Below, piece by piece: positions 4,155 through 58,469 of a stretch of DNA of 62,073 bases (the first letter of the stretch is position 1; each line of letters begins with the position of its first letter). A program made the position numbers and the translations under genes. The DNA comes from Negaprion brevirostris. Its lineage: Eukaryota. The notes below the pieces were generated by a model. The model worked only from the letters and a program-made list of their open reading frames with translations. It did not search any database and was not told the DNA's origin. The stretch covers positions 21,560,098 through 21,622,170 of the forward strand of contig JARDVH010000193.1 in NCBI GenBank assembly GCA_030324005.1, given 5' to 3'.

Positions 4155-5175
4155 AGCGGGAGGCAATGGCCCAGTGGTATTATTGCTCAACTATTAATCC
4201 AGAAACCCAGATAATGTTTTGGGGACCTGAATTTGAATCCCACCATTGCAGATGGAATTTGAATTTAGTAAAAAATAGTTNNNNTTAAGAGTCTACTGAT
4301 TACTATGAAACCAATGTCAATTATCAGAAAAACCCATCTGGTTCACTAATGTCCTTTAGGGAAGGTAATCTGCCATCCTTACCTGGTCTGGCCTACGTGT
4401 GACTCCAGAGTCACAGCAATGTGGTTGACTCTCAACTGCCCTCTGAAATGGCCTTGCAAGCCACTCAATTGTAACAATCGCTACGAAGTCTCAACAAAGA
4501 AATGAAAGCAGACAGACCACCTGGCGTCGACCTAGTCACCGGAAAAGACAACAGCGAAACAAACAGCCCTGTCAACCCTGAAAAGTCCCCCTTACTAACA
4601 TCTGGGGGCTAGTGCCAAAACTCAGAGAGCTGTCTCACCGACTAGTCAAGCAGCAGCCAGACGTAGTCATTCTCACAAAATCATACCTTACAGATACCAC
4701 CCCAGACATCACCATTACCATCCCTGTCCCACCAGCAGGACAGATCCAGCAGAGGTGACGGCATGGTAGTATACAGTCAGGAGGGAGTGTTCCTGGGAGA
4801 CTATAACATCGACTCCGGATCCCATGATGTTTCATGGTCAAAAAACCTCTTACTGGTTACAATGTACTGTCCCTCTTCGGCTGTTGAATCAGTATTCCTC
4901 CATATTGAACAACATTTGGAGGAAGACCAATAGTGCTGCTACCAAGCCACTTCTGGTGGTGGACATTGAAATCCCCCATCCAAACTACATTTTGCACCCT
5001 TGCCATCCTCAGTTCTCCCTCCAAATGTTGTTCAGTATGCACTAGTGATCGAGCTGGTTGGGAACTAAAGGATATAATTGCTAGACTGGGTCTGCCAGCA
5101 GATGGTGAAGGAACCAACAAGAGGAAATAACATGCTTGACTTCATCCTTACCAATCTGTCCATGACAGCATTGGG
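4155..5175 (+). mobile_element. 5' part of CR1/L2-group LINE 'family B': tRNA-like head, 5' UTR and AP endonuclease
   Basis: A-box-like tggcccagtgg and B-box-like tttgaatccc, then GLVPKLRELSHRLVKQQPDVVILT, with the MGDFNVHH motif on an inverted piece. Confidence 0.7.
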
Positions 5176-5490
5176 AAGAGTGATTGAGTGTACACCTCGC
5201 CGCTGCGAAACCAGGTTTCATCTAATTTCTCACATTTTCCAAATTACACGATAGTTAAGAACCAGTATTTAGGTTTCCCGTCCAAGATTATGGGATACCC
5301 TCACATTGAACATCAGAGGAGCTCATGACACCAGGTACCAAGAGAACTCACATGACTCTTAAATCTTGAGCCTCTTGCAGTTGTCATGGACCTTTGAAGG
5401 TCCTCAGCGCGTAAAGTGTTACTCCTCTGTAAATGTGTGGTACTCCCTAAAGACATGACTAATGATGCCTGTTTGTTTTCCACAGTGTGA

Positions 5491-5660
5491 GAATCATAGA
5501 ATCCCCTCACTGCGGAAGGAGGCCATTTGGCCCATCGAGTCTGCACTGACCACAATACATTCCAGGACCTATTTCCGTAACCCCACGTATTTACCCTTTT
5601 AATCCCCTGACACCAGGGTCAATTTAGCATCACCAATCAACCTAACCTGCATATCTTTAG
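5491..5660 (-). mobile_element. HE1-type V-SINE, 3' half
   Basis: catagaatccc...ggccatttggcccatcgagtctgcac...caatttagcat...acctaacctgca, matching the full copy at 33905-34231. Confidence 0.8.
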
Positions 5661-6709
5661 AGAAGAAATACAATGGTGCACATTCAGCCACAAAGTCCTC
5701 AATAGAGCCATTTATTGGCTCCTTAAAGATGCATTTCCAATGTTCAGACCAATGAGGTAGGGCTCTCCACCTAAGGTGTCCCACATCATTGCTATTTGGT
5801 ATGCCCTGTACAATCTAATGCTGCAGGGAGGAAATGTTTCGCTAGACATTTCCTCAAAGAGGACACCAAAGGGGATGAATTTGAGGAGGGAGAGATTTCA
5901 GACAAGACAAAGAAGAAAGAAAAATACAGCACAGTGAGTAGTGCCAAGGTGCCCCTTGGGCAGTGCTAGAATGCCTGGCTGACACTGCGTAACAGTCACC
6001 ACTCTGCCCCCAACCTCCCGGGAGGCTTCAATGTTCTCTGCCCCCACCACCAGCCCACATCTTGATGCTGAGCCCCAGGATACCATCAGATATCAAGGTG
6101 CAATGATCTTTCATATGACAACATGAGCACGAAGCTGAGAGTTATGTTAGCATTATCATCACAGGTTGATTCAGTAAGACCATCATGCGATTATTGACAA
6201 ACTCTCATTTGCTGCATTCATCAGAAATCTACCAAATTTAGATACTGCATCACCTTGGCATCTGGGAGAACTGTGGCTCAGTCAGTTTTGACACAGCAGT
6301 CAGCGATAACCTAATCCCTTCAAAGATACTGATCAGCACTCAGGAGAAATGCCGGACCATTGCTTTCATACCGTTACAGTCCTCGATATTGTCCATCTCA
6401 CAAAGGTCAATCTTTAGTATGAACCTTAAGAGACTGATTTCAGAGTCATGTAACAAAATCTACATTGTTTGGCATTCTATGACCTCATAAAAGGATTCTG
6501 TTAAGCAACAATAGACAGCCTTTCAGGAGCAAAGTACCATTTTCTGAGGTAATTTGACATTTCATCGGGATGAAGACACCCTTAGAGACTTCTGGGTGGA
6601 TGGCCCCAAGCTGTCTGTCTGATGCTCCTCCTTCTTTTGGGTGCGCAAGATCCCCTCCCTGACTCCTTGACGAGAAGGAGGGATGTCAAAGCGCTCTTTC
6701 CTCTCTCAC

Positions 6710-7835: not shown

Positions 7836-8650
7836 TATTGGAAAGAGCTAAAAGGACAACTGCTGCACCTCAGAAATGCACCTCGGGTTGGATAAGTGTC
7901 ATTAGAAGTGTTTGAAGAATGGACCAGAGGGGGCCATCCCATTAGTACGCTGAAGGAGAGAGAGGACATTGATAACACTTGTGTGATCCACGGCAACCAC
8001 ATCTTCAATAAATGTCTGCAGCTCGAGGAACTTCAGCTCAAAGTTGACGACATCAGAGATTGCAATATATCAGGGAGATGGAAAGTTACCTGGAAACTTT
8101 GTTCCAAGAGGTAACCATACTCCCTAGGTTAGGCTCTTTACACTTGGTCCATGGTCACAGACAAGAGGACGTGACTGAAAGTGGCTGTTATAAGGATCCN
8201 NNNNNNNNNAGAAAGTAGCAAAGGAGGAGGAGCCCCAGCCCTTGCAATTGGCCAACAATTATCAGGGTATGAAGACAGAGTTGGCTAAAGGGGAAAAAGA
8301 AAATAAACAGTAATGCGATGCAGAAGCTGTTGCAGAAATTTTAGTCAATATTCCATTATTCTCAAAAATATTTTTAATTGAGAAAGAAAGATGCTACAAG
8401 AAGCACCATCTATGGTTAATTAAGGAAGTCAAGGATGGTATCAAATTAAAAGAAAAGATATACAATGATGCAAAGATTAAGGATAGGCTAGAAGATTGAG
8501 AAAACTTTAGATACAGACAAAAGCTAACGAGAGAAAGCGAGAAATTAGAGCATGAGAGAAAACTAGCAAGAAAAATAAAAACAAACAGTAAAAGTTTCTA
8601 CAAGTATACAAAAAGAGAAATGAGTGACAAAAATGAGTGTTGGTCCCAGA
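7836..8650 (+). mobile_element. CR1 LINE ORF1 N-terminal and ORF2 linker fragments
   Basis: NHIFNKCLQLEELQLKV (ORF1 Cys/zipper region), then PWLIKEVKDGIKLKEK...KTNSKSFYKY. Confidence 0.7.
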
Positions 8651-8654
8651 GAAC

Positions 8655-9090
8655 ATACACATATACAAGCATCTGGATTAAGAGCAGAAGTAGGTTATTT
8701 GTCCCCTCAAGCCTGCTCTACCATTTGATAAGATCAATTGTGGCCTCAACACCATTTTCGCACCTCCGTCCAATAACCTTTGACTCCCTTATTAGTAAAG
8801 AATCTTATCTAACTCTGCCTTAAAAATATTCAATGACCCTGTCTCTCTGGAGAAGAGAGTTCCAATGATTCATGACCTCTAAGAGAAAACATTTCTCCTC
8901 ATCTTCGTTTTAAATGGGATGCTCCTTAGTTTTAAACTGTGACATCTATTCCTAGTCTCTCTCACAAGGAAAAATATCCTCTCAGCATCCATTCTCTTAA
9001 GTCCCCGCAAGATTGTATATGTTTCAATAAGGTCACCTGTCATTCTTCTGAACTCCAATAGATACAGGCTCAATATTTCCTCATAAGATA
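8655..9090 (-). mobile_element. CR1 LINE 3' end
   Basis: ORF 8879-9109: LEFRRMTGDLIETYTILRGL...TRNRCHSLK. Confidence 0.8.
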
Positions 9091-9438
9091 ACTGGATGTC
9101 CTTGTGCATGAATCACAAAAAGTTAACATACAGATACAGCAAATAATTAGGAAGGTAAATGGAGTGTTTACCTTTATTACAAGGGGAATGGAGTGTAAAA
9201 GTAGGTGAGTCTTGCTGCAATCATACAGTGGAATGGTGAGTCCACACCCAGAGTATTATGTCCAGTTCTGGTATTTTTACTTCAGGAAGGATGCTCCTGC
9301 ATTGGGAGAAGTTCAGAAAAGGTTCATTAGGCTGAATCTTGGAATGAAGGGATTGTTTTATTGGGAAGGTTCAGCAATTCGTTCCTATGCTCGTTGGAGT
9401 TTAGAAGAATGAGAGGTGATCCTATTGAAATTCTGAGA
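9091..9438 (+). mobile_element. CR1 LINE late ORF2 fragment
   Basis: PHPEYYVQFW...LGEVQKRFIRL...LEFRRMRGD. Confidence 0.8.
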
Positions 9439-9440
9439 GG

Positions 9441-9541
9441 ACAGAAACAGAAGATGTTGGAAAAATTCAGCAGGGCTGGCAGCATGTGTGGAGGGAGAAA
9501 TAGGATTAACATTTCAACTCCATATGACTCTTCTTCAGAAA
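9441..9541 (-). mobile_element. Penelope-like terminal repeat fragment with a degenerate hammerhead core
   Basis: Minus strand CTGAAGA-AGAGTCATATGGAGTT-GAAATGTTAA followed by ...atgctgccagccctgctga...; related copies at 21488-21581 and 60030-60160. Confidence 0.55.
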
Positions 9542-13339: not shown

Positions 13340-13540
13340 ATTGCGTGGGTTTCCTCTGGTTGCTCCGGTTTCCTCCCACAGTCCAAAAGATGTACTGGTT
13401 GCATGCATTGGCCATGTTAAATTCTCTCTCTGTGTACTCGAACAGGCATCGGAGCATGGCGACTAGGGGATTTTCACAGTAACTTCATTACAGTGTGAAT
13501 GTAAGCCTTCCTGTGACTAATAAATAAACTTTAACTTTAA
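13340..13540 (+). mobile_element. V-SINE with an alternative (non-HER1) tail, 5'-truncated
   Basis: V-domain gcgtgggtttcctc...tgctccggtttcctcccacagtccaaa, then tggcgactagggg...taataaataaactttaactttaa. Confidence 0.8.
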
Positions 13541-13689
13541 TAGTTTGTTTCAATAAATTAAAGCCTCAGGTGATAGAACTCTATCATTTTGTATGCATTA
13601 TCAAAACATTAGGCTGATTAACAGTGTGTAGTTTTCTTCCGTCCTTTCGAGTTATCTTTGCAACTTTTGTCAACATTTTTCTGAGAAAT

Positions 13690-14620
13690 TTTGATTTGAT
13701 TTGATTTATTATTGTCACATGTATTAGTATACAGTGAAAAGTATTGTTTCTTGTGCGCTATACAAAGCATATTGTTCATAGAGAAGGAAAGAAGAGGGTG
13801 CAGAATATAGTGTTACAGTCATAGCTGGGGTGTAGTGAAAGATCAACTTAATGCGAGGTTAGTCCATTCAAAAGTCTGATGGCAGCAAGAAAGAAACTGT
13901 TCTTGAATTGGTTGATACATNNNNNNNNNNNNNNNNNNNNNNNNNNNNNNNNNNNNNNNNNNNNNNNNNNNNNNNNNNNNNNNNNNNNNNNNNNNNNNNN
14001 NNNNNNNNNNNNNNNNNNNNGAGGCTGATTTGAGCGATGGACTGAACTTCATTCACGACCCTTTGTAGATTTTGTAGTATTGGACACAGCAGAAGCCACA
14101 CCAAAATCTGATATAACCATAAAGAATGCTTTTTATGGTGTATCTGTAAAAGTTGGTGAGACATGTCAAATTTCCTTTGTCTTCTAACAAAGTAGAAACG
14201 TTGATGGGTTTTCTTAATTATAGTGTCAGCATGAAGGGACCGGCACAGGTTGTTAGTGATCTGGACACCCAAAAATATGAAGCTCTTGACCATTTCTACT
14301 AAGGAGTATAGTAAGGGGCTGGGGACACAGCCTTGCAGAGCTCCGGTGTTGAGGACGAACGTGGAGGACGTGTTGTTGCTTATCCTTACTGATTGCAGTC
14401 TGTGGGTTAGGAAATTCAGGATGCACTCACAGAGGGAGGAGCCGAGCCCCAGGCCACGAAGTTTGGAGATGAGTTTTGCAGGAATAATGGTGTTGAAGGT
14501 TGAGCAGTAGTTTATAAATAGGTGTCTTTGCTATCCAGGTGTTCCAGTGTTGAGTGTAGGGCCAGAGAGATGGCATCTGCTGTGGACCTGTTGTGGTGGT
14601 AAGCGAACTGTAGTAGAACC
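13690..14620 (-). mobile_element. Rex1/Babar LINE 3' part (contains a 100-N gap)
   Basis: [15 protein letters not shown]...[26 protein letters not shown]-like and [18 protein letters not shown] motifs; (tttga)n tail. Confidence 0.8.
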
Positions 14621-16984: not shown

Positions 16985-19900
16985 ACAAAGGACAAAGAAA
17001 ATTACAGCTCAGGAACAGGACCTTCAGCCCTCCAAGCCTGCACTGACCANNNNNNNNNNNNNNNNNNNNNNNNNNNNNNNNNNNNNNNNNNNNNNNNNNN
17101 NNNNNNNNNNNNNNNNNNNNNNNNNNNNNNNNNNNNNNNNNNNNNNNNNNNNNNNNNNNNNNNNNNNNNNNNNNNNNNNNNNNNNNNNNNNNNNNNNNNN
17201 NNNNNNNNNNNNNNNNNNNNNNNNNNNNNNNNNNNNNNNNNNNNNNNNNNNNNNNNNNNNNNNNNNNNNNNNNNNNNNNNNNNNNNTCATAATCTTATAG
17301 ACTTTTACCGGGTTGTCCCTCAACATTGAGAACAAACTAAGTTTCTCCAACCTCTCCTCATAGCTAATGCCCTCCATACCAAGTAACGTTCTGGTAAATC
17401 CTTTCTGTATCCTCTCCAAAACCTCCATATCCTCCTGGTAACGTGGCGACCAGAATTGAACACTATATTCCAAGTGTCCAAGTGCGGCCTAAGATTCTAT
17501 AAAGCTGCAACATGACTTGCCAATTTTTAAACTCAATGCCACAGCCAATGAAGGCAAGCATGCCATGTGCCTTCTTCACTACCTTCTCCACCTGTGTTGC
17601 CACTTTCAGCGACCTGTGTACCTGTACACCCACATTCTTCTCCCTATCATTACTTTTGAGGGTTCTGCCATTTACTATATATCTCCTATCTGTTTTAGAT
17701 CTTCCAAAATGTATTACCTCACATTTGTCTGAATTAAACTCCATCTGCCGTCCCTCCACCCAAGTCTCCAACTGATCTATATCCTGCTGTATCCTCTGAT
17801 GGTCCTCATCACTATCCGCAAATCCACCAACTTTGTGTCATCTGCAAAGTTACTATCAAACCAGTTCCATCCAAATCATTTATCTATATTACAAACAGCA
17901 AAGGTTCTAGCGCTGATCCCTGAGGAACACCACTTGTCACAACCCTCGACTCAGAAATGCACCTTTCCACTCCTACCCTCTCTCTTCTATGACCAAGCCA
18001 GTTCTGTATCTATTTTACCAGCTCACCTCTGATTCCATGCGACTTCACCTTCTGCACCAATCTGCCATGAGGAACCTTGTCAAAGGCCTTACTGAAGTCC
18101 ATGTAGACAACATCCATTGCCCTACCTTCATTAATCATCTTCGTCACTTCCTCGAAAAACTCGATCAAGTTAGTGAGACATGACCTCCCCTTCACAAAAA
18201 CATGTTGCCTCTCGCTAATATGTCCACTTATTTCCAAATCTCAAAGAACCCTATCCAGTAATTTCCCTACCACTGATGTAAGGCTCACCGGCCTGCAATT
18301 ACCTGGATTATTCTTGCTATCCTTCTTAAACAAAGGAACAACATTGGCTATTCTCCAGTCCCCTGGGACCTCCCCTGTAGCCAGTGGGTATATCTCTCAA
18401 GGCTCCAGCAATTTCCTCCCTGGCCTCTCTCAGTATTCTGGGTATATCCCATCAGACCCTGAGGACTTGTTTACTTTACTGTTTCTCAAGAACCCCAATA
18501 CCACCTCCTTTTTGATCTCAACTTCTACTACCCTTTCCCAGACACATCATCCACTAAATCCTTCTCTTTGGTGAATACTAACGCAAAGTACTCATTTAAT
18601 ACCTCATGCATTTTCTTTGGCTCCACACATAGATCCCCTCCCCTGTCCTTAAGGATAGGGCTCCCTCCCCGGCTACCTTCTTGTTCTTTATATATGTATA
18701 AAAAGCCTTGGGATTTTCCTTAATCCTGCTGGCCAATGATTTTTCATGACCCCTTTTAGTCCTCCTTACTCCTTCCTTAAGTTTCTTTCTACTTACCTTG
18801 TATTCCACACTTGCTTTGTATGTTCCCAGTCTCCTAGCCTTAACAAATGCTTCCTTTTTCTCTGTGACTAAGTTCACAATATTTCTCATTATCCAAGGTT
18901 CCCAAAACTTGCCATACTTATCCTACATCCTTGCAGGAATGTGCTGGTCCTGAATCCCTATGAACTTACATTTGAAAGCTTCTCATATGCCAGATGTTGA
19001 TTAAGTTTAAAGTTTATTTATTGAACTTCACTATTAAAAAGCACCAAAATTGATAACCCATTCATTACATTTAAATTCCTTCAGCTGTTTTATCCCTCAA
19101 TTAAAATAAACAATTTCTCAAGTACCTAATCCCTCACCTCTTTTACATCCCCCTCTATCCTGCCTGAAACATTTGTATCCTGGCACATTAAGCTATCAAT
19201 CCTGTCTCTGTCTCTGTAATAGCAACGACATCATAGTTCCAAGTACTGATCCAAGCTCTAAGTTCATCTGCCTTACCTGTTACACTTCTCGCATTGGAAC
19301 AAATGCACTTCAGTGCAGCAGACCTTCTTTGATTAGCAACCACACTCTGCTTGCTCTTCCTCTGAGTCTTACTGGTCCTACTCTCTGGTTCCCCTTCAGT
19401 TAATTCACCTTTGCTTTGGTTCCCCTGCCTTGCCAAACTAGTTTAAATCCTCCCATGTGACACTAGCAAACTTCTCGGCCAAAATTTGTATGCCCTTCCA
19501 GTTTAGATGCAACCTACCTTTCCTGTGCAGGTCCCACCTGCCCCGGAAGAGATCCCAACGGTCCAGTTATCTGAAGCCCTTCCTTCTACGCCAGCTGTTT
19601 AGCCACATGTTGAGCTGGACTATCTTTCTGTTTTTAGCCTTACTGGCATTGAGGACCTGCTTTTTAACTTTCTACCAAACTCCTTAAACTGCTGCTGCAG
19701 GACCTCATCATTCTTCCTACCTATGTTGTTAGTACCAATATGTACCATGACCTCTGGCTCTGTACCCTCTCCCTTCAGAATGCTTTCTGCCCGTTCAGAA
19801 ATATCCTGGACCCTGGCACATATCATCCTGGGGTCTCTTTCACATCCACAGAAGCACCTATCTGCACCCCAAACTACAAGAGTCCCCTATAATTCTGGCT

Positions 19901-24659: not shown

Positions 24660-24825
24660 CAGAATGGCATAGGCGTTAGCAAGGCTGCCTACAGCACCCA
24701 GGAAGCCGCGTTCGATTCTAACATTGTGTGGAATTTGCACATTCTGCCTGCATCTGTGTGAGTTTTCTCTGAGTGCATCCGTTTCCCCCCCACAGTCCAA
24801 AGTTGTGCAGGTTAGGTGGATTTCA
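24660..24825 (+). mobile_element. V-SINE 5' part (tRNA head and V-domain)
   Basis: tggcataggcgttagc...gttcgattc...ccgtttcccccc-cacagtccaaag. Confidence 0.65.
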
Positions 24826-27509: not shown

Positions 27510-27868
27510 TCATAGGAATAGGAATAGGCCATTCAGTTCATCAAGCTAGTTCTGCCATTCAGTGAGACCATGGCAGATCTGTAGCCTAACTCCATATACT
27601 TGTTTTTGGCCCATATCCTTCAATATCTTTGCTTAACAAAACTTCATCTATCTCAGATTTAAAGATAACAACTGATCTAGCATCAGCTGCCATTTGTGGT
27701 AGAGAATTCCAAACCTCTATCACCCATTGTGTGTGGAAGTGCTTCCTGACATCTCCCCTGAATAGTTTGATCCTAACTTTTAGACGATGCCCCCTAGTTC
27801 TAGAAACCCCAACCAGTGGAAATAGTTTATCTTTATCTCCTCTATTTTTTCCTATTGGTATCTTGAAT
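27510..27868 (-). mobile_element. CR1 LINE 3' end
   Basis: cataggaataggaataggccattcag... tail and a TRGHRLK motif on the minus strand. Confidence 0.8.
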
Positions 27869-28122
27869 AGTTACAGAATACTGAGGGACCTAGATAGATT
27901 GGACATGGAGAGGCTGTTTCCACTAGTGGGAGAGACTAAAACTCAAGGGCACAATCTCAGAATGAAGGGACGCTCCTTTAAAACTGAGATGAGGAAGAAT
28001 TTCTTCAGCCGGAGGCTGCTGAATCTATGGAACTCATTGCCACAAAGGCCAAGTCATTGAGTATCTTTAAGACAGAGATAGATAGGTTCTTGATCAATAA
28101 GGCAGGAGAATGGGGATGAGAA
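27869..28122 (+). mobile_element. CR1 LINE 3' end running into a gap
   Basis: YRILRDLDRLDMERLFPLVGETKTQGHNLRMKG...LLNLWNSLP. Confidence 0.85.
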
Positions 28123-30059: not shown

Positions 30060-31385
30060 AAACCACAGGGATCAATGCTGGGACCTGATATTTATATCAG
30101 TGACATACATGAAGGGACCAACGTAAATTTGTTAAATTTGCTGACGAAACAAAGATAGGTAGGAAAGAAATTGTGAAGCGAGAATTAGGAGTCTGCAACG
30201 GGACATAGGTAGGTTAAGTGACACCACAAGGTACAGTGCAGAAGAAGGCCATCTGGCCCATCAAGTTTGCACTAACTTTCTGACAGAGTGTCTTACCCAG
30301 GCTCTCTCCCCAGTCCTATCCCTGTAACCCCATGCTACCGTAGCTAATCCACCTAACCTACACATCTTCTGATACTAAGGGACAACTTAGCATGGCCAAT
30401 CCTTCTAACCTGCACATCTTTGCAATGTGGGAGCAAACAGGAGCCCCCAGAGGATACCCACACAGACACAGGCAGAACGTGAAAACTGCACACAGTGATC
30501 TAAGGCCAGAATTGAACCCAAGTCCCTGGTACTGTGAGGCAGCTGTGCTAACCTTGTGTCACCACACTGTAAGTGGTCAAAAAATTGATTGATGGAGTAT
30601 AATGTGGGAAAATGTGAACTCATCCACTTTAGCAGAGATAGTAGGAAAGCAGGATATTATTTAAATGGCAGAACTCTGAGATACAAAGGGATCTAAGTGT
30701 CCTGGTATATAAGTGAAGAAACATTAATATGCAGGTACAGCATGTTATTAGAAAGGCAAATGGAATGTTGTGGTTTAATGCAATGGGAATATTAAAGCAG
30801 GGTTGTTTGGCTATAGTTGTATAGGACGTTGGTCAGACCACATCTGGAGTACTGTGTACAGTTTTGATCTCCTTATTTAAGAAAGGCTATAAATATGATA
30901 GAAGCCATTCAGAAAGGTTTGCTGAACTGATACCTGGGATAGTGGCTTGATCTTACAAGAAAAGGTTGCACAGGCTGTATTCCATGTAGTTTAGAAAATT
31001 GAAAGGTGATATAATTGAACTATATAGGATCCTGAGCAGATTGGACAGGGTGGGTACTGAAAGGATATTTCCCCAAGTGGGAGAGACTAGAACTAGGGGC
31101 CATAGTTTGAAAATAAGGGGTCCCCCTTTTAAGATAGAAATGAGAAGAAATTCCTTCTCTCAGAAGATTGTGTGTGTTTTTGAAACTTTCTTTCCCAGAG
31201 AATGGTGGAGGACGGTTCAATTATTATTTTTAAGGCAGAAATAGATAGATTCTTGATAAGGGAATCAAAGGTTATTGGGATAGGTGAAATGTAGAGTTGA
31301 GGCCACAATCATATCAGATATGCTCTTATCGAACGGCGGAGCAGGCTGGAGGAGCCAAATACCCACTCATGCTCCTAATTTGTAT
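30060..31385 (+). mobile_element. CR1 LINE 3' ~1 kb (RT to tail) with a nested HE1
   Basis: PQGSMLGP, KFADETK, LVRPHLEYCVQF and TRGHSLKIRG motifs, then the CR1 tail. Confidence 0.88.
30231..30568 (-). mobile_element. HE1-type V-SINE, full length, inserted in CR1
   Basis: tRNA head (aattgaaccc), V-domain and CR1-like tail; it splits the CR1 DIGRLS|WxK region. Confidence 0.85.
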
Positions 31386-32463: not shown

Positions 32464-32579
32464 GTAAGCAATTAAAGCAGAGGGGTTAATATTATCATCC
32501 AGTTGTATATTCCCAAAATAATGTGGAATTTAAGACATAGAATTACATAACATGTTTGAATAAACAGCAATGTCTTTTT

Positions 32580-32930
32580 TAAAATTCATTCATGGGACCT
32601 GGGTGTCACTGGCTGGACTAGCATTTATTGCCCATCCCCAACTGCCCTTGAATTGAGTGGCTTGCTTAGCCATCTCAAAGATCGTTTTCTGGTCAACCAC
32701 ATTGCCGTGGTCTGGAATCACACATAGGCCTATCCAGGTAATGTGGCCCAAAAGGACATTCATGAACCAGCTCGGTTTTTATAACAATCAACAATGGTTT
32801 TGTGATCAACTTATTAGGCTTTTGAATTCCTTTTTTTTACTGAATTCAAATTTCACCATCTGCCCCTATGGGATTTAAACATTATACTCGCTCTCCAGAT
32901 TACTAGTCTAATGAAAATACTACTCTGCCA
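32580..32930 (-). mobile_element. Short non-autonomous element: LINE family B 5' head/UTR joined to the family B 3' tail
   Basis: Minus strand matches 4160-4470 (ctggttca...atgtccttt...cagcaatgtggttgac...aagccactcaatt), then gggcagttggggatgggcaataaatgct. Confidence 0.75.
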
Positions 32931-32973
32931 ATGTTATCAAAGACTCTTGCTCCAGTTAATTGATAGACACAGA

Positions 32974-33174
32974 TTTTTTTGTTTGTTTTTATTCCAATTC
33001 AATCCAATCAAGTCCAATCCAGAGTCTCAGCAAATTGAGACATTCCCAATCCAAGCTGACAAGACAGGGCTCTCACCTCCTGCCTCAGGCTTGATCTACA
33101 TGATTGGAGTAGGTAGAACTCCACCTCCAAGGCTTGATCTCATTTGCATCTTAGCCAAAAGGCCAAGATGCTGC
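32974..33174 (-). mobile_element. U2 snRNA-headed A-tailed retroposon (SINEU-like), copy B
   Basis: Minus strand GCATCTTGGCCTTTTGGCTAAGAT matches 22/24 of vertebrate U2 nt 4-27; two AGATCAAGC hairpin units; AATAAAAACAAACAAAAAAA tail. Confidence 0.75.
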
Positions 33175-33904
33175 TTTTAAAAAAGATTTTATCTTTACAT
33201 CAAATCACATATTCACGAGGAAAATGTAACAAAACTTTAAATACTTATGCTACAAGACTGATTTTTTTATATTGTATCACAAATCAATGCTTCTATTCTC
33301 CTATAAATCTACTGTAACAAGTTTACAAACGTAGATGTTTACAATTCATACTCATCTAATGGACCTGTAGTGGTGTCTCTATCCACTCAGGCTGAATAGG
33401 CATGGAGAGGGATCAGACGTCATCAAGCTTAAATCCTGAAGTTTCTTTCTTCTTCTGTGGTTCTTCTCTTCCAGTTCTGTTCTTCAAAATTCCAATATTT
33501 ATTCTTCTGAGACTGACTGGAATAGATGCAGTTCTGCATGTAGTCATTTACCATAGGCATATCCAAATTAGTTTATGGCAGTCTGCCCAAGCTCAGGGCA
33601 GTATCCTAAACCTGTTTAACTCCTGGTTCCTGCCCATTTGATTGATTAGAATGACTTTATTATCCATCGTAAAACCAAAGCCATTTGTTACAAGTAAACA
33701 GAGCAGTCTACGTATTCAGCCTAGAGTTAAAACCATCTGTTCTGATGTTAGCCACATTTTCCATCAGGCCATTGTAGTGTCCTTTTCTTTGCTTGGCCAT
33801 TTTTGATTAGACTATAGCCCACCAGCTACACCATCATCCCCCACAGAGGCATGCAACAATATTATAAATATTGAACTATTATACATTTGAGACTATTTTA
33901 TAAG

Positions 33905-34231
33905 CATAGAATCATAGAACGCTACAATGCAGAAGGAGTACATTTGGCCCATCAAATCTGCACCAACAACAATCTCATCCAGCACTATCCCCATAACCCC
34001 ATGCATTTACCCTAACTACTACCCCTAAAACTAAGGGACAATTGAGCATGGTCAATCAATCTAACCTGCACATCTTTAGACTGTGGGAGGAAACCGGAGC
34101 ACCCAGAGGAAACCCATGCAGATACCGGGAGAATGTGCAAACTCTACACAGACAGTGACCCAAGCCAGGAATTGAACCCCAGTCCCTGGTGCTGTGAGGC
34201 AGCAATGCTAACCACTGTGCCATCGTGTCGC
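33905..34231 (-). mobile_element. HE1-type V-SINE, full length
   Basis: tRNA-like head (tggcacagtggttagc; gggttcaattcc), V-domain, CR1/HER1 tail ending (ttctatga)n. Confidence 0.92.
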
Positions 34232-35530
34232 ACTAATTGATCATTTCAAAAATAACAGATTTGAAAACATTGTTCAATAATGGTAATACATGAAGATTCA
34301 CAAGTGTAATTTAAAAAGTTTTTGTTTCCTAGACATAAATTTTCCTCAATGTACTAATAATAAGGAGGAATAATTTTGATTGTGAGCGTTTTCAATAGTC
34401 CAATTGCTAGAATACTTACCTCATATCTACTTTTATTCAGGGTCCGACACTCTTTATCAATCTGTGTTGAATGACCTGGGAAACATTCTAATCCAGTCTC
34501 TGCTGGCTAGGAAATTGATTGCTTATCTCACAATGTGGAAAAAGCCATGAGCAATTTAGAATAAATGTTAGTCAAAACTGATACTTGCTTGCAAAAAAAT
34601 TATGACAATTTACTGTCCTACAAGTTTCTCATTTATAATTAACTAGAAATGTAATAAAATGTGTTTTTAAGTAAAACAAAATGAACAGATGATGTGTTTT
34701 TTAACATATAGATACACAATAAGTAATAACTTAGCCAGATAAAAAGTTTCAACTTAATAATACCTGCAGTTCAGAAAGTTCACTGTACAATATAATCAAA
34801 TATCTGAGACACTGGGGAGAAAGCTAGTAAACAACTGACACTAACTTAACTCAAGTATTACACACNNNNNNNNNNCATTCGGTTAAAATATTTTTGTTGC
34901 TTAATAATTTCATAGATACATAGCAACATTCATCCCTTGTAAGGAAAAATATTTCATCCTAGAAACTGTCAGGTGAGGGCTACCTTTTTTTTCATTTGAG
35001 GGTTGTTTCAAACGTAACCTGGATATAATTCATTTTTACACTACTTCACAAAATAGAAATACTGCAACATGATTAAACAAAATAGACTGCTGATGATTTC
35101 TGTGATTTAAACCTTTCAGTTACCTAAGCTGCTCTTTGATTAAAATTGCAGTCCAGTGTGGGTAAACAGATTTTTTAAAAGCATATGTTGGATTATAAGA
35201 TCACTTTAGCACCAATGTTAATTTCAAACCGTATATATTAAATTAATGAAATTGCCTGCTGTTGATTCATATTTCAGGGCCTTAAGATGGATCTGCAGCT
35301 GGTCACCTTCATCATAAGTCTATAGATTTATTCTTAACACAGTTCTGTGGTTGATGTGTTGTTTGAAGCTGTATAGTCACTTTGATGTTTCTGATTTAAG
35401 CTTTAATGCAGCTTCTGATGGGCACGATCAACTTCTGATCCAAGTGATTAAGCATAGGTTTTGGGCCACTTAAATAATGCCCTTAGAAGTGAATTTGCAC
35501 TATACATACTCTGCATGGTTTCCTCCAAAG

Positions 35531-35777
35531 GCAATACAGAAGAGAGATGACCTCTTGAGGAAGTCCGAAACAGACCTGCTCCAGGCTCGTGATAGTATCA
35601 AAGGGAAGGTAACAGAAATTGAGAAGCAAGGCGCTGTGGTGAAAGGCCTAGAGATGGATCTTCAGAGGCTGGAAAAGGAAAAGCAGCAAAAAGAAAATGA
35701 AAACATTTCCCTTAAGGCAGAGATGGAGCAGCTGAAACAGGATCTACAAAACAGCAATAAAAACTGCAGAGAATTTG
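35531..35777 (+). CDS. PMFBP1: Exon D (247 nt, phase 0/1): AIQKRDDLLRKSETDLLQARDSIKGK...LKAEMEQLKQDLQNSNKNCREF
   Basis: Acceptor tttcctccaaag, donor TTG|gtaagg. Lies within ORF 35477-35839; coiled-coil composition. Confidence 0.85.
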
Positions 35778-36629: not shown

Positions 36630-38330
36630 TCTGTTTTAAAGGATTGTCCCTCTAGTCTGAAGTTGTGCCCTCTGGTTCTAGCTTTTCCTATTAGTGGAAA
36701 TATCCTCTCCTCATCTACTCTATTCACACCTCACAGTATCCTGTGAGTTTCAATAAGATTGTGAAGTTGTACAAATGAAATAGTGGCATGATGAGAAAAC
36801 TGGTCAAGTATTTGGTACAAAATAAGGGAAGCTGACCAAAATGCCAGACCCCTGTAAAACTTGATAAGACTGATTCCACATAACTTAAGACATGAATAAA
36901 GACCAGAGACGGTCAAGCAGTGCCTAATCTCTGTAAGACCTGATAAGGCTGACTCCACATGACCTAGGGCTGTATGAGTGAGACAAGATAAGAGCAGAGA
37001 TGACGAAGTCATCGGTCTTCTTCTGTCCTATCAAAAGGACAAAATAAAGGTATGAATGATGAGTCAAAGAGTTCAAGGAGGTCAGCAGGTTGTACCATTA
37101 TTTATGACATTATTTATGATGCCTCTGTTGATCAAATTCCTGAATAAGTTCTGGTCATGCAAACTGATAATGATTATGTATAAATACAGAATTGATTTTT
37201 TATGTAAGCGCAGACTTGAGAAGGAATTAGCAAGTCATAACGACAGCTCTCCAAACTCAAGTTTTTGCCAATACTGCACGCAGTCTTTCGCAAATAAAGA
37301 CAAGTTGTTTTGTTAGAACGAACTTTGTTGAGTCTTTCCACCACAGTCAGGAAGCAGGGAAAATTCCACTTCAACAAGATCCCCCCCTCATCCTTCTAAA
37401 CTCCAATGAGTACAGACCCAGAGTCCTCAACCATTCCTCATATGACAAGCCCTTCATTCCAGGGATCATTCTTGTGAAGGTCCTCTGGATCCTTTCCAAG
37501 GCCACACATCCTTCCTTAGATATGGGGCCCAAAACTGATCACAATACTCCAAATGGGGTCTGACCAGAGCCTTATACAGCCTCAGAAGTACATCCCTGCC
37601 CTTGTATTCTAGCCCTCTTGACATGAATGCTAATATTGCATTTGCCTTCCTAACTGCCAACTGAATTTGCACATTAGCATTGCTGAAAAGAACCTTAGGC
37701 ATTGTAAGGGAGTCCTTGTTCATTTCCCCATTTAGAAAATACTCTATGCCTCCATTCCTTCTTCCAAAGTGCATAACCTCACAATTTTCCACATTGTATT
37801 CCATCTGCCACTTCTTTGCCCACTCTCCTAACCTATCCAAGTCCTTCTGCAGCCCCCTGCTTCCTCAATATTATCTGTCCCTCCAAATATTTTTGTATCA
37901 TCTACAAACCTAACAACAGTGCCTTCAGTTCCTACCTCCAAACCATTAATATACATTGTGAAAAGTTGTATCCCATGCACTGAGCCCTGAGGCACACCAC
38001 TAGTCACCAGCTACCATTCTGAGAAAGCCCTCTTTATCCCCATTCTCTGCCTTCTGCCAGTCAGCCAATCCTCTATCCATGTCAGAATCTATCCTTAATG
38101 GCATGGGCACTTATTTAACAGTCTTTGATGTGGCACCTTGTCAAAGGCCTTCTAGAAACCTAAATAAATCATGTCCACTAGTTCTCCTTTATCTAACTTC
38201 CTTGTTACCTCCTCAAATTAACAGATTTGTCAGACATGACCTCCCCTTGACAAAGCCATGCTGATTTGCCATGCACTTCCAAATACTCCACAATCTCATC
38301 TTTAAAAATGGATTCTAAGATCGTCCCAAA
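36630..38330 (-). mobile_element. CR1 LINE RT region interrupted by a solo LTR
   Basis: DRLGEWAKKWQMEYNV...LYKALVRPHLEYCDQFWAPY; TRGHNFRLEG. Confidence 0.9.
36760..37376 (+). mobile_element. Solo LTR (617 bp) with a 4-bp TSD
   Basis: TGTGAAG...CTTCAACA termini; AGAT on both sides (36756-36759, 37377-37380); TATAAATA at 37179-37186; AATAAA at 37293-37298; CR1 sequence is continuous across it. Confidence 0.88.
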
Positions 38331-41060: not shown

Positions 41061-41388
41061 CCTACTTTACAATGAATTGGTTGGGTAAGACTTACCCCAC
41101 TATTTTAAGTTAGTGCTACCTGAGCCATATTTTGCATTGTTGAAAAAAAATCCACCAGTGCCTTAACTATATATCTTTTTCTTAGCTTGAGGATAGCTTG
41201 GGTGGACAGGTCTTCAGCATTACAGGCTGGATATTATCTGGCCCTATAGCCTTTGTTGTGCAATGTTATGTGGACTAAACTCAATTGACAGACATGAATA
41301 CCTGTAATGAGGGGAAGGTTGAAGTTCCTCGGAGAATGACGTCGGATTTTAGTCATTATGATTTAATTACTTGGTCAGCTGATTGTAA

Positions 41389-41691
41389 GAATCATAGAAT
41401 CCTACAGTGCAGAGGGAGGCCATTGAGCCCATCGAGCCTGTACTGACAAAACTCACACCCAGGCCCTATTCCACTAACCCTATGAATTTACCCTGCTAAT
41501 CCCACTGACACCATGGGGCAATTTAGCATGGCCAGTCAACCTAACCTACACATCTTCGCGGTGTGAGAGGAAACTGGAACAGCCAGAGGAAACCCATGCA
41601 GACATGGGAAAAATATACAAACTCCGCGTAGTCACCTAAGGCTGGAATTGAACCCGGGTCCCTGGCACTGTGAATGCTACTATGCCACCCT
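41389..41691 (-). mobile_element. HE1-type V-SINE
   Basis: Same layout as 33905-34231. Confidence 0.88.
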
Positions 41692-41782: not shown

Positions 41783-42613
41783 GGCTGGGATTTACCCAAA
41801 ACAAAACCACATGCCCAAAGGGCAGGAACCCACCCATTTTTGGGCATACTTACCCGAATGAATCTCCCGACATTCTGAGTAATACAGAGTGCCTCGGAGT
41901 GATACATGCTGAAAAGTGATGGATAAGGTCTATTCCCTCCTGAGAGGCTGGCAGCATAGTGCTGAGCGGGTCACTGTGCATGTGCCGATCTGTCAGTGTA
42001 CTGGTATCCCCATCNNNNNNNNNNNNNNNTCCCATGAACTGCCCCCTACGCTGGCCTTCCCAACCCCGCCCAAACTGCTGGCATCCCAGCCCCCGCCCCC
42101 CATGGCCAACCCTGACCTCCTCCACCCCATTGACCAGGCCCGAAACCATCAACCCCCCCAGCCCCCTGATGGTCAATCTCGATCGCTCTCCACACTCCGT
42201 TCCCCACTGATCCCACTTGCAGGGTGGCAGCAGGTCCACCTCTCCAGCAGTGGTTAGCACTGCTGTCTCACAATGCCAGGGACCCGGGTTTGATTCATGG
42301 CTTGGGTCACTGTCTGTGCGGAGTCTGCACATTCTCCCCTTGTCTGCATGGGTTTCTTCCAGATGCTCCGGATTCCTCTCACAATCCAAAGATGTGCTGA
42401 TTTGGTGCATTGGCCATGCTAAATTCTTCATCCGTGTATCCAAACAAGCACTAGCATGTGGCAACTAGATTTCCACAGTAACTTCTTTGCAGTGTTAATG
42501 TAAGCCTACTTGTGATACTAATTAATAAACTTTAAACCTACAAAACTCATATGGAAATTTCGTGTGGAGCTGATTGTGCTCAAGCAGCACAGCAGACCAG
42601 GAGAATCCCGGCC
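41783..42613. mobile_element. PIF/Harbinger-type MITE
   Basis: TIRs ggctgggatttacc / ggagaatcccggcc (12/14); ATT on both flanks (3-bp TSD). Confidence 0.7.
42246..42535 (+). mobile_element. V-SINE with alternative tail, nested in the MITE
   Basis: cagtggttagcactgct...gggtttgattc...V-domain...cacagtaacttc...taataaactttaaa. Confidence 0.85.
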
Positions 42614-45584: not shown

Positions 45585-47110
45585 TCATTGTTCTTTGAAG
45601 GATTGTGAGCATCGATGGCAAAACCAGCATTATTGCCCACACCTAATTGCCCTGACAAGGTGATAGTGAGCCATCTTCTTTAACCACTGCAGTCCATCTG
45701 CTGTATGTGCATATACAATGCTGTTAGAAATAGAATTCCAGGTTTTTGTATGAGCAACAATGAAAGAACAGCAATATTTCCAATTCCAAGTCAGGAGCAT
45801 GTGTGACCTGGAGCGGGGGCATTCAGATGGTAGTGCTCCCACATTTCTGCTGCCCTTGTCCATCTAGGTGGTAAAGGTCACTGGTTTTGAAGGTACTGTT
45901 GAAGAAGTCTTGGTGAATTGCTTCAGTGCATCTTGTAGATGGTATTGATGCCATGAATGTCAGTGGCAGAGGGAGTCAATGTGCAAGGTGGTGCCGATCA
46001 AACAGGCTGCTTTGTGTCAAGCTGCTTGAATGTTGTTGGAGCTGTATTCATCAAAGCAAACGAAGAGCATTCCATCACATCCTGGCTTGTTCCTTGTAGA
46101 TGGTAGACAAGCTTTGGGATGTCAGGAGGTGAGTTACTCACCATACTGTTTCCAGCCTCTTACCTACTCTTGCAACCACAGTATTTATATGGTCTCTTTA
46201 AGTTTCTGGTCAGTGGTAACCCTTGTCTGTTGATGTTCAGAAATCAGTAATGCTAATGGCATTGAACATCAAATGAGGATGGTTAGATTCTGTCTTGTTG
46301 GAGATGGTTATTGCCTTGCACAAATGTCACTTGTCATTTATTAGCCCAAGCCTGAATGTTGCAGCATATAGAATCATACAGTGCAGAAGAAGGCCATTCA
46401 GCCCAACGAGTCTGCACTGGCCACAATCCCACCGAGGCCCTATCCCCATAACCCCATGCATGTATCCAAGCTAGAACCCCTGAGACTAAGCGGCAATTTN
46501 NNNNNNNNNNNNNNNNNNNNNNNNNNNNNNNNNNNNNNNNNNNNNNNNNNNNNNNNNNNNNNNNNNNNNNNNNNNNNNNNNNNNNNNNNNNNNNNNNNNN
46601 NNNNNNNNNNNNNNNNNNNNNNNNNNNNNNNNNNNNNNNNNNNNNNNNNNNNNNNNNNNNNNNNNNNNNNNNNNNNNNNNNNNNNNNNNNNNNNNNNNNN
46701 NNNNNNNNNNNNNNNNNNNNNNNNNNNNNNNNCAAACATCCCCACTTCTGACCTTGTGATGGAGGGAAAGTCATTGATGAAGCAGCTGGAAATGGTTGGG
46801 CCTTGGATACTACCCTGAGGTACTCCTGCAGTGTTGTCTTAGGATTGAGATGATTGATCTAGAACAACCATCATAACCTTTGTGCCAGATATGACTTTAA
46901 CCAATGAAGAGTTTAATTCCTACTTCCCCTTGACTTCAATTTTGCAGGGATACCTGATGCCACAATTGGTCAATTGCTATCTTGATGTTAAGGGCTGTCA
47001 CTCTCATCTCACCTCTTGAATTCAACTCTTTGTTCATATTTGGACCAAGGCTGTAATGATATCAAGAATCAAATGGTCCTGGTGAAAGCAAAACTGAGCA
47101 TCAGTAAGCA
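45585..47110 (-). mobile_element. LINE family B RT and 3' end with a nested HE1
   Basis: Tail gcattattgcccacacctaattgccc; GVPQGSIQGPTISSCFINDFPS (RT core) on the minus strand. Confidence 0.8.
46368..46499 (-). mobile_element. HE1-type SINE 3' end running into a gap
   Basis: atagaatcatacagtgcagaagaaggccattcagccc... Confidence 0.8.
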
Positions 47111-55077: not shown

Positions 55078-55267
55078 CACAGGAACTGGCACACCATGAG
55101 GAGAAACTTTTACTAATGGGGAGTGGCCTGCAAACCACACAGAATCAACTAAGTGATCGTATTGCAGAGATTGTGCGACACGAACAGAAAAGTCGTAAAC
55201 TTCAGTCAGAGCTTAAAACACTGAAAGAACAGGCAATTAGCAACAAAGAAGAGATGGATGATTACAG
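55078..55267 (+). CDS. PMFBP1: Exon E (190 nt, phase 1/2): (A)QELAHHEEKLLLMGSGLQTTQNQLSDRIAEIVRHEQKSRKLQSELKTLKEQAISNKEEMDDY(R)
   Basis: Strong acceptor tttttctttcttcacag, donor CAG|gtgaac. Resembles PMFBP1 AQQAAQCKEE...LEDTQRKL...IQELQRELQMLQKE. Confidence 0.85.
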
Positions 55268-55443
55268 GTGAACTATTTAATGCTTTGTTGACCAGAAAAG
55301 TGAAACCATGATCAGGCAGGGGACACTGTTGCACTTGGGTGTGTTGATGCCTCGGATCATGGTTTGCCTAAGCTAGGATAGAGTAAAGTATCAGGGCAGC
55401 CAATGAGGTTAAACCGAGGCTTTACCTGATGCAATTTGTCAAA

Positions 55444-55649
55444 GTCACCTCAGCCTTTTGGCTAAGATGAAGCGTTAGATCAAGCTCAGGAGCAGGTGCA
55501 ATGCCTCACCCTGATAACTTGGATCTTGGTTGATCGAGCCAAGATAGAGTGCAATGTTTTGTCTTGTCAGCTGGGATCTAGTTTGTCCTTCATGAATTAG
55601 ACTCAATTTGAATTGGCTTTTTTGATTACAAATAAAGTACTAAAAAAAA
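55444..55649 (+). mobile_element. U2 snRNA-headed A-tailed retroposon (SINEU-like), copy A
   Basis: 55449-55475 CTCAGCCTTTTGGCTAAGATGAAGCGT matches 24/27 of U2 nt 8-34; two ~50-nt hairpin units; AATAAA then A8. Confidence 0.75.
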
Positions 55650-58469
55650 GTGATTGCTAACTTTGACATAGTATAGTACTGGATGCAGAATTCTTGTTAA
55701 AAATTAAAGTAAATTTATAGTCAACTCAATATATTATAACAGACTGCTAATATAACCAAACTTTATCAAGTTCTAATTTTCTCCTCGTGCTCAGCACAGA
55801 TGAAGAGGATGCTGTTACATTGCTAGTACATTTCTCCCTCAGCTATATAATAAACATTAATAAGTCTTACAGCTGCACATACAGCCTGTTAATTTTGGCC
55901 ATTATCAATTCTTATGTCTATATTTGTAAAGGAAATGTCTCTAAACTTGCAAATTCTAAATATATTATTGTGGTGTTGCAGTGGTTCAGCTTTGCATCTT
56001 ACAGCGACTCAGCCTTTACTGCAGAAAAGCACTCTTGCTTCATTCCAGCTCAACTTTCTTATTCCCCATATTGCAGTGTAGATTTTTTGACAGTGTAATA
56101 TCCTAACCATGTCAGGCATTGGATTTTAAACAAAAAGAAAAAAAATGTGAATTGCATGTGTAGATTCAAAGTAACACATATCAAGTTTATTGAAAGAGAT
56201 GTTCAGGAAATGAAACTAAACAACAGCCTGTGAAACACCCTAATGATATCAACATCATGTGATTAATGCATGTTAATACATCGCATCATTTACATGAAAT
56301 TTTGGATTTTTTTACACTATGGATATTATTCATTATATGTAATTTTCCTACACTTGACTTTAAAAGCATTCTTTGCAATATAACAAAAAAAATTGTTGTT
56401 TCACATTCCAGCATCCACAGTATTTTGCTTTTACTTTTGTAATCCAATGTTTGTGGATTTTATTTTTATTTGTATGAAATCACATGAGCTAACCTATCAA
56501 ACAATGTCATTTCATTTAAACCCTGTATGGTGTTTAATTTAAATATTTCATATTCAAATCTTCTATTTGACTAAGAGCAAATATTGAACCGTTTTAGATA
56601 AAGCCCTTTAATAATCTGGAATATTTGAACCAGAGAATAGTGAGTATTCATTTCTGTGGGTTGTGAGAAAAGCAAGCCGACATCATTGCTGCAATGCTTT
56701 CCCATTGTCGCTTACGGATAAAGGTTGTCTGCACAGTCAGTGAACAGAAGTGTTAACTACATGATATGCCAATAGGTATTAGGTAGGATTAGTAATTAAG
56801 TGATGGGTTGAAGAATAAACTGGGCATTTGTCAAACCTGAAATAATTTTGTAAGTATCTTCTGCCGCAAACCTGGCAAACATAATTGCTGGTGTATTGAT
56901 TGGGCTTTATGCTGGTCTGGTGGCATGGGTGGAGGAGAAAGGCACTGGGAGTCAGCAGTATTGATTAACCATTATAGGAGTTAGTGGTTTGTGATGTCTG
57001 TTTGTTGTGAAGACTTTTCTCAGTGAGAAATATTTCTTTTGACAGAATGAATGAGTAAATACAGTGCAGCACAAAAAATGGCTCGTGATTTCACGCATTA
57101 TTACAGATGGACCATTTTATCCATTATATTGAACACTTCAGTAGAAATACAGTTGTAACACTAAATTACAACTGAATTATCTCATAGATTTTCAGATCAA
57201 TGTTTCTCATCATTATAGACAGCAAGGCTGAAATATATTAGCTATTCTTTGCAATAGACTGTTTTAAAGAAAAATAAAGTGCGAAATGAGACCAGTATCA
57301 TCCCATGTCACAGAACGATGGGGAGTCACATGGGGCAGACTGGCCTTTCACGTAGTTTGCACATCATCTGAGGGCCAAGAGCTGCTCATGGAAAACAGAT
57401 AGTACAGGACAGACAGTCAGCTTCAAGCTGTCTTGATGTAAGGTAACCGACTCCAAGTCGAAAAAGCAGGTACTTTGGACTGGAGATGTTCCTTCATGGG
57501 TTGGGAGGGAGGGACCTGGCATGGCAACCCAAAAGAACATAGGTAAGTGTGGAGGAGCAATCCTGCTATTTTTGGTCCAATAAAAATAAAGTAGCACTTT
57601 AGGTAAAGTTTTTTTTAATTGCCTTTACTAATTAGGCACAAGCAAAGATTTTGCAGTCACAGTATCATCTGAAGGTTCTCCTGAATGCGCATTTGCCCTT
57701 TGTCAGTTACCTAGTAATGCTGAACACACTAATATATCCAGATTCTTGCAAATTTAGAAACCAAAAGCACCAACAAAGGGAAATTAGATATCTGAAATGA
57801 GAACAACTTTTTAATTTGTTTTGTCAAAGTACTTCCAGTGATTGATCTCACCTCACAGAATCACAAAATTGTTACGGTGCTAAAAGAGGCCACTTGGCCC
57901 ATCACTTCTGCTGTTTGGATATTATCGACGCACAGGTTTAGTCACCAATGCATTTTCTTTTTGCAGCCTTCCCAAATCACCCTGTCAATGAGGGGGTAGG
58001 TAGAGGAATATCTGGGCCTAGGTCTCAATGACGAGATGTTGTCACAGGAAAACAGATGGTGCATTTTAAGATTGCACTTCCTCCAGGTGCCCATCTCCTC
58101 AAAAGGCAGGGAGATGCCATCACACACCAATAATGAGGAGGAGCACCAGCAAGGCAACCTTGGAATTTCAGCTGCCATTCAGCCTTCTCTCTGCTAGTGA
58201 CTCCATTTCCTCCAGCAGATTAGATCGAGGACTCTGCACCTGCACTTGTGCAAAAGACAGTTAGCAGCCCTCAGTCCACCAGAGGATGTCTGCCAAAATC
58301 ACCACAGTCAACAGGGCATGGCAGTTAGCAGACTGCCTCCACCTCAGCTGCAGTTGTTGAGACTGCACCTAGGTGTAAGGGTAGAAAGAGGAAAATAGAA
58401 AAATTTTGAAGGCAAATAAGTATCACAGATGTACAGCCATTGTATATAGTTTTGGCACTTGTAAATATA

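Follow-up and report, generated by a model that had tools for sequence, protein, structure and literature searches.

The window, by which we mean the whole 62,073-nucleotide stretch of Negaprion brevirostris DNA analysed here, is intron-rich vertebrate sequence in which we mapped seven exons of pmfbp1 on the + strand. Over 416 exon residues, 328 are identical to the gene of the bamboo shark Chiloscyllium punctatum, and comparison with two rays gives 266/413 and 232/364; one exon (35540-35776) reaches 95% identity to C. punctatum pmfbp1 and 72-76% to a chimaera and two rays. These comparisons mark the DNA as that of a shark. This gene is host to both elements described here, which lie on opposite strands in two different introns, 22 kb apart. 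Copy A (342 bp, 55304-55645) is sense to pmfbp1 and starts 35 nt into the intron that follows the exon ending at 55268, while copy B (206 bp, 33183-32978, minus) is antisense within intron 32467-35539. Their parts are as follows.

14891-62029, + strand: host gene pmfbp1, seven exons seen.
55296-55303, + strand: copy A, 5' target-site duplication (TSD) AAAAGTGA, an exact 8-bp repeat of 55646-55653 that abuts the first hairpin.
55304-55364, + strand: copy A, module 1, a long hairpin whose 10-nt loop resembles that of U1 stem-loop 2 with its U1A site (Rfam, fold).
55372-55392, + strand: copy A, degenerate U2 nt 20-40 (16/21, ungapped).
55388-55432, + strand: copy A, module 2, the K-turn of the U4 5' stem-loop (55398-55420) on an 8-bp closing helix (Rfam, fold).
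55435-55480, + strand: copy A, linker in common with copy B, then U2 head with stem I, U2 nt ~5-39 (nhmmer E 2.5e-4).
55477-55523, + strand: copy A, middle hairpin block, not U2-like, present in copy B too and a paralogue of module 1.
55524-55630, + strand: copy A, second degenerate U2 segment, nt 7-110, to just beyond the Sm site (alignment to U2 genes).
55631-55649, + strand: copy A, AATAAA (55631-55636) and A tail (55642-55649, last four A in common with the TSD), read from the sequence.
55646-55653, + strand: copy A, 3' TSD AAAAGTGA, ending the tail.
33184-33190, - strand: copy B, 5' TSD AAAATCT, an exact 7-bp repeat of 32977-32971.
33146-33183, - strand: copy B, linker and U2 head, 22/24 to U2 nt 4-27 (E 3.4e-4; Rfam U2 E 0.05-0.08).
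32994-33145, - strand: copy B, middle block and 3' body, homologous to 55477-55630 (nhmmer E ~5e-9).
32971-32993, - strand: copy B, AATAAA (32993-32988), A-rich tail and 3' TSD (32977-32971), read from the sequence.

The start of copy A, in sense orientation and 35 nt 3' of a pmfbp1 5' splice site (window 55269-55304), means that the pmfbp1 pre-mRNA would carry U1-, U4- and U2-like hairpins together with an AATAAA near an exon. Judged from this position, an effect of copy A on pmfbp1 splicing or early polyadenylation is possible.

A first-pass annotation had placed elements at 55444-55649 and at 32974-33174 (minus), and the motifs it named are all present there. The starts of the elements lie further upstream, by some 140 nt in copy A (55304) and by about 9 nt in copy B (33183). 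Both copies (2/2) end in AATAAA and an A-rich tail, and when TSDs were scored, as the annotation had proposed, each copy proved to be flanked by an exact, short and A-rich repeat, of 8 bp for copy A and 7 bp for copy B, both starting with AAAA. The 5' AAAAGTGA is the single upstream match within 640 nt, with 10 occurrences of the word on both strands of the window, and in copy B the homology to copy A begins directly behind the 5' AAAATCT. A 7-mer repeat arises by chance in 9 of 1076 control placements. Since the 5' boundaries were set after the repeats had been seen, we take these duplications as support rather than proof. Homology to the core likewise ends at the TSDs of copy A, the DNA outside giving 196/1000 and 80/1000 shuffles.

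Several other classes of element were considered. A MITE was suggested by a 9-bp inverted repeat at the boundaries first proposed (55437-55445 and 55660-55668, copy A linker versus 3' flank) and was dropped because one arm is inside the element; the repeat is probably due to chance. A snoRNA or scaRNA was rejected because the U2 sequence is in sense orientation, copy B is antisense to pmfbp1 and both copies have tails and TSDs. Neither do the copies conform to a classical Pol III SINE (SINE1/2/3): internal runs of 4-6 T occur inside the element, Rfam finds no 5S, 7SL or tRNA match in it, and there is no tRNA anywhere in the window. Sense frames of the core are closed by stops, and translated search of the single open antisense frame (in copy B) gave one match, to a bacterial protein and by chance, so that we see no coding remnant.

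Our data show that the two copies are homologous. Without head and tail, their bodies align with a score of 83.5 that 0/2000 dinucleotide shuffles reached (nhmmer E ~5e-9), and the middle block alone was matched by 0/3000; identity amounts to ~62-68% and varies with gap cost (127/212 or 138/222 columns). The 300-nt flanks of the copies are unrelated (182/500 and 385/500 shuffles). Searching the window for a 16-nt head motif yields one exact occurrence in each copy, at 55453 (+) and 33163 (-), and none besides even when 3 mismatches are allowed. Self-BLAST, tile scans and nhmmer likewise found no third copy there; two lone word matches, at 6879 and 30953, can be put down to chance (166/300 and 280/300 shuffles). 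Among bacterial and archaeal genome contigs, 46 loci have the head motif and none has the element's layout, and the phage records searched gave no match. The middle block is not U2-like (211/2000 and 122/2000 shuffles versus U2). In the U2-like 3' part, with 86 comparable columns, both copies differ from U2 in 26 (about 19 would be expected under independent decay), and in 17 of these 26 they have the same non-U2 letter. Because the non-U2 middle block and the 17 derived states are common to both, a common rearranged master, rather than independent U2 pseudogenes, is supported by the comparison of these two copies, in agreement with what had been argued in the first pass from the non-U2 features found in both.

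The window holds other repeats as well. A 240-bp pair (4232-4470 and 32651-32879, 70% identity) begins ~90 nt downstream of copy B and leaves copy B outside. A second dispersed repeat of ~300 bp is present in eight or more pieces with 73-83% identity (5486-5661, 13342-13534, 24664-24822, 30369-30553, 33908-34217, 41384-41673, 42248-42535 and 46368-46499) and is likely a common shark SINE or LINE tail. Decayed LINE-like coding fragments, which we take to be CR1/L2/RTE-like, lie at 8500-9540, 13687-14530, 17463-18922, 27586-28060 and 37231-37864.

For U2 references, a genome collection was scanned for the head motif; it returned 46 loci, 20 of which were then scanned with Rfam. Fifteen of the 20 hold a U2 match above 119 bits, and 14 of these 15 (L005 being left out) make up our U2 profile. 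Among the nine window matches listed for this profile, the two heads are the top two and the only ones above the inclusion threshold (E 2.5e-4 and 3.4e-4), which bears out the proposed U2 origin of the heads and reproduces the matches of 24/27 and 22/24 first given for them. In copy A the head is identical to U2 nt 5-39 at 27/35 positions and its linker to the start of copy B at 8/10; in copy B the head folds as an uninterrupted 11-bp hairpin (33171-33146, z -6.68). A whole-window Rfam scan at E<=1 contains neither a U2 nor any other snRNA match, and in small-region scans, where alone Rfam finds U2, the E-values of 0.05-2 go with 12-19 bits versus a gathering score of 46, real U2 genes scoring 119-192 bits. 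Neither copy has the full-length Rfam match or the intact branch-point region of a functional U2 gene.

The loci that the head motif returned deserve a remark of their own. Across L001-L046, many bacterial bins carry eukaryotic U1, U2, U3, U5 and U6 genes, that is, host or community contamination. L003, L025, L028 and L037, on contigs of one bacterial bin, consist of eukaryotic DNA. They include a U2-like gene with an altered branch-point recognition region (the first match in L037) and several repeats with tandem U2 heads and a common non-U2 body; three of them score 47-51 bits or are without Rfam scan. These loci may represent a variant U2 or a further family of U2-headed repeats. In L004 and L016 (contig CBDAUV010000067.1) the U2 5' ends break after ~nt 41 and nt 33 into unrelated sequence. 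Other contigs of that bin hold U2 arrays with a 2081-bp period, and the two loci look like insertions in U2 genes near the Keno/Utopia site.

Downstream of the middle block, copy A contains a second, degenerate U2 segment. It scores 46.5-55 versus five U2 genes, levels reached by 0, 0, 0, 0 and 3 of 3000 shuffles, and lies above all 798 window tiles for the three U2 genes so tested; its reverse complement is null. At 55538, an ungapped match to U2 nt 20-54 (24/35) is the best in the window, and 8 of its 11 mismatches are transitions. The segment has been refolded as a long hairpin (55519-55581, z -5.41). Upstream, the short piece at 55372-55392 ties as best among 124,106 positions (three places, two of them within copy A). 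An earlier U2 test from nt 33 onwards was weak (6-304/500 shuffles), and it was the profile search that pointed to nt 20-54. In copy B, the 3' body alone versus U2 is not significant (179-1818/3000 shuffles), while it is homologous to copy A across the same U2-like stretch. The U2 3' half (nt 110 to the end) is absent from both elements (100-451/500). The 3' part had been described as only loosely like U2, which understates copy A, where the match is colinear over nt 7-110, and goes beyond what copy B gives alone. Similarly, the branch-point hexamer is literally absent from both copies, as had been stated, yet a diverged homologue fills its position in copy A. The 3' end of copy B (32994-33025, -) is a short run of 4-5-nt repeats with a 24/35 self-match at period 10, standing where copy A has an Sm-like U run.

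U2 sequence on both sides of a non-U2 block might also indicate truncated Keno or Utopia insertions in U2 genes, or short Tx1 LINE derivatives with a U2 head. Insertions of Keno (Tx1) and Utopia do interrupt U2 near the branch-point region (PMC4640811, in the part available), the best U2-like stretch of copy B starts near nt 40, and U1/U2 heads are described for some Tx1 families in the accessible text of PMC4494074. However, U2 downstream of Utopia/Keno begins at nt 39 according to the same portion of PMC4640811, whereas in copy A the U2 sequence is taken up again at nt 7 and breaks off near nt 110 instead of running from nt 39 to the end, the U2 3' half is missing, no coding remnant is seen, and tail and TSD stand outside the U2 parts in unrelated intron DNA. 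We therefore regard such insertions as very unlikely, as the master postulated in the first-pass annotation had implied.

A U4 match at the edge of the first Rfam scan led upstream to a 5' extension of copy A. In a 201-nt stretch (55270-55470), three of five Rfam matches are spliceosomal and follow each other in tandem on the + strand, namely U1 (49-91 at 55314-55352, E 8.6), U4 (25-47 at 55398-55420, E 0.86) and U2 (1-29, E 2). These E-values cover 4227 families and correspond to ~2e-3, 2e-4 and 5e-4 per family; every Rfam match of the element is below its gathering score, and no U1 or U4 match appeared when two equally long control stretches were scanned. Nothing resembling U5 or U6 was found in the element.

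The U4 assignment is the stronger of the two upstream. All 23 columns at 55398-55420 are compatible with the Rfam consensus, and identities of 13 nt and 7 nt (20/20) exist to the two U4 K-turn strands printed in the part of PMC2952850 at hand. The module is unique in the window at 3 mismatches (0/100 shuffles) and keeps the C-stem, a 3-nt bulge, tandem G-A pairs and a short second stem (fold z -3.74). Module 1, closed by a perfect 10-11-bp stem (z -3.46), has in its loop the seven central letters of the U1 stem-loop-2 consensus with a different first loop position, and its first 10 nt recur as a word within the U1-derived sequence that the available text of PMC4494074 quotes for SINEU-2. Since pairwise alignment to one U1 gene, a divergent one, is not significant (584/3000 shuffles), derivation of module 1 from U1 stem-loop 2 is probable only, judging by loop and word. 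The copy A body gives 36-43/3000 shuffles versus U1 in an alignment register that we do not trust.

The extension is paralogous to the core of copy A (0/2000 shuffles), whereas no relation to copy B is detectable (767/2000). Internal duplication is visible only by alignment (0/400 shuffles for copy A, 17/400 for copy B), and Tandem Repeats Finder reports nothing for 55200-55800. The element is more than a U2 head on an unrelated body: it is built almost wholly of snRNA pieces, of which U4 and the probable U1 had been missed in the first pass.

One may ask whether the snRNA likeness is mere convergence of short hairpins in an unrelated repeat, given the perfectly palindromic head of copy B and the uniformly low Rfam scores. 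Three U2 segments, one of them a 100-nt colinear match with transition-rich mismatches, and the 20/20 match to two published U4 K-turn words (PMC2952850, in its available part) make this hardly credible. That the U2 and U4 parts descend from snRNA, that the two copies have common derived ancestry and that tails, TSDs and stable folds are present is, to our minds, what the window demonstrates.

Copy B lacks the U1/U4 extension, its start falling immediately behind the point where copy A has the U4 module, so that a single copy represents the composite form, which could be a one-off chimera. Taken further, this would make both copies low-copy chimeric retrocopies, an old U2-derived retrocopy having been copied once or a few times and the extension of copy A reflecting a single multiple-template-switch event. 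There are precedents, as mammalian snRNA retrocopies with poly(A), TSDs, A-rich targets and double or triple chimeras are documented in the available portion of PMC4476161, and our elements are similar to them in all but one respect: independent retrocopies would not have non-snRNA sequence and derived substitutions in common as the two shark copies do. Moreover, two opposite copies 22 kb apart within 60 kb are unlikely for a rare element. Two copies per 60,306 called bases correspond to 33 per Mb with a 95% interval of 4-120, to be read with the window having been picked for carrying copies. Nor do the paralogy of extension and core and the long closing stems suit a one-off switch between normal snRNAs, and we consider the low-copy explanation improbable.

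Both RNAs would fold far better than shuffled sequence. Fold z is -3.37 for full copy A, -3.84 for its extension and -3.48 for copy B (-2.04 for the part of A delimited in the first pass), and 2 of 284 background tiles reach z <= -3.4. In a hand-set register, a 9-bp stem keeps 9/9 pairs in both copies with six pairs changed, and a 5-bp stem keeps every pair with three of five double changes. In alignment-based permutation tests on the two copies (12 settings; RNAalifold was run on them as well), P ranges from 0.04 to 0.63 for pairs kept and from 0.014 to 0.87 for double changes. Near-perfect stems despite one-third of positions differing suggest, as a reading of the predicted folds, that the copies go back to separate masters, each under structural constraint, and not to a single master followed by long neutral decay.

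Such folds, together with intact K-turn features and the hand-set stems, might equally be expected of retropseudogenes from a cellular shark RNA, encoded by one or few genes, that combines U2-, U4- and U1-like domains; the source RNA would be kept for a host function and its inserted copies would seed no new ones. Against this stand the alignment-based covariation values above, the fact that SINE masters are likewise under structural selection, the absence of any Rfam family covering the whole RNA, and the nesting of U2 fragment repeats, best preserved towards the 5' end, which is the pattern of SINEU-1. A cellular source RNA seems unlikely to us for these reasons.

We favour instead, with a probability of roughly 70%, a SINEU-like non-autonomous retroposon family of sharks, mobilised by an L1/Tx1 enzyme and bearing a U4 module, of which two copies are seen here. 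Speaking against it are these two copies being two-thirds identical, the Rfam scores below gathering and the short TSDs (7-8 bp); if it holds, many more copies would be expected. Its master locus may have arisen when a retrocopied U2 snRNA (5' half, to the Sm site) was joined to a hairpin. Further 5' modules would then have been gained by template switching or partial duplication, probably a fresh U2 head, the U4 K-turn stem-loop and a partial unit repeat with the U1 stem-loop-2-like hairpin. Repeated 5' addition would place the best-preserved U2 piece upstream of the most decayed, and copy A shows this order. The RNA, ending in AAUAAA and poly(A), was probably a product of RNA polymerase II starting at an external promoter; this is the likelier source because there is no tRNA and T runs lie inside, as has been argued for SINEU. 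An A-rich tail and A-rich TSDs are marks of target-primed reverse transcription by an L1/Tx1-type enzyme, and the target preference of L1 is TT/AAAA. Tail, A-rich TSDs, dispersed position and the shorter copy all point to such an enzyme, which would reverse-transcribe the RNA at A-rich target sites and leave short TSDs; copy B may be a 5'-truncated copy or a member of a shorter subfamily. LINE1-superfamily elements occur in all vertebrate lineages examined, the elephant shark among them, as far as the available part of PMC4350176 goes.

SINEU-1, -2 and -3 of crocodilians were described by Kojima in 2015 (PMC4494074, the accessible portion of which we rely on throughout), as poly(A)-tailed elements mobilised by Tx1 that repeatedly gained U1/U2 pieces at the 5' end and underwent partial duplication; SINEU-2 has U1 and then U2, and SINEU-3 has rearranged U2. 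The shark element is similar in being shorter than 500 bp and derived from U2 and probably U1, in its snRNA head, poly(A) tail, TSD and common derived structure, in having T runs inside and no tRNA, 5S or 7SL head, and in repeated 5' snRNA addition with partial duplications. It differs in its host, a shark, SINEU having been found in crocodilians only as far as that text states; in the U4 K-turn module of copy A, the phrase "U4 snRNA" as well as sharks being absent from the same text; and in a U2 part that ends just past the Sm site. The flanks of the two copies do not match one repeat in the window, and no flanking target repeat like the Mariner-N4 of SINEU is seen. By its head, tail, length, common derived structure and TSD, the element is filed as SINEU-like and not as a member of SINEU-1, -2 or -3.

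HE1, SacSINE1 and SINE2-1_CM are likewise short retroposons of sharks and chimaeras (PMC5499810, PMC10468316, in the parts at hand). The head of SacSINE1 is tRNA-related and the tails of C. milii SINEs are L2-like (available text of PMC5499810), and snRNA is not mentioned in the accessible sections of either paper; we set all three apart by these descriptions. In the 2023 dogfish genome, HE1 and SacSINE1 are the sole known shark SINEs named for the repeat library, according to the portion of PMC10468316 available. Our literature search, with a scope that left most subscription papers and Repbase Reports outside, found no shark SINE that is snRNA-derived or bears U4. HE1 is of tRNA origin. Prior curation of the family in Repbase or Dfam is quite possible, and in that case only the U4/U1 mosaic anatomy would be new.

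What might such an RNA gain from its snRNA parts? U1A binds U1 stem-loop 2, and SRP9/14 binds Alu. A tentative idea, to which we give rather less than even odds, is that an abundant shark retroposon (or cellular RNA) is a mosaic of U1, U2 and U4 which has kept protein-binding structures so that its RNA poses as an snRNP, the structures kept being, hypothetically, a U1A-type loop, a Snu13/15.5K K-turn, U2 stem I and an Sm-like site. K-turn and U1-like loop might bind Snu13/15.5K and U1A and thereby help the RNA. By analogy with the use of SRP9/14 by Alu, snRNP mimicry could serve stability, trafficking or access to the LINE enzyme, and copies in introns near splice sites could, if this is true, also recruit splicing factors.

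If this mosaic idea is true, SINEs would have arisen from snRNA a second time, in the shark element, and for the first time with U4 included. An unannotated shark repeat of this kind would inflate counts of snRNA pseudogenes and put AATAAA and splicing-factor sites into introns. For SINEU, the available text of PMC4494074 leaves open by what means elements with a promoter-less snRNA head come to be transcribed, and what favours such heads. Comparison with a second lineage, in sharks, whose masters seem to have retained folded modules for protein binding and to have gained a U4 K-turn, could test this: if identical RNP-binding structures persist in the two lineages, the head would serve RNP assembly rather than transcription.
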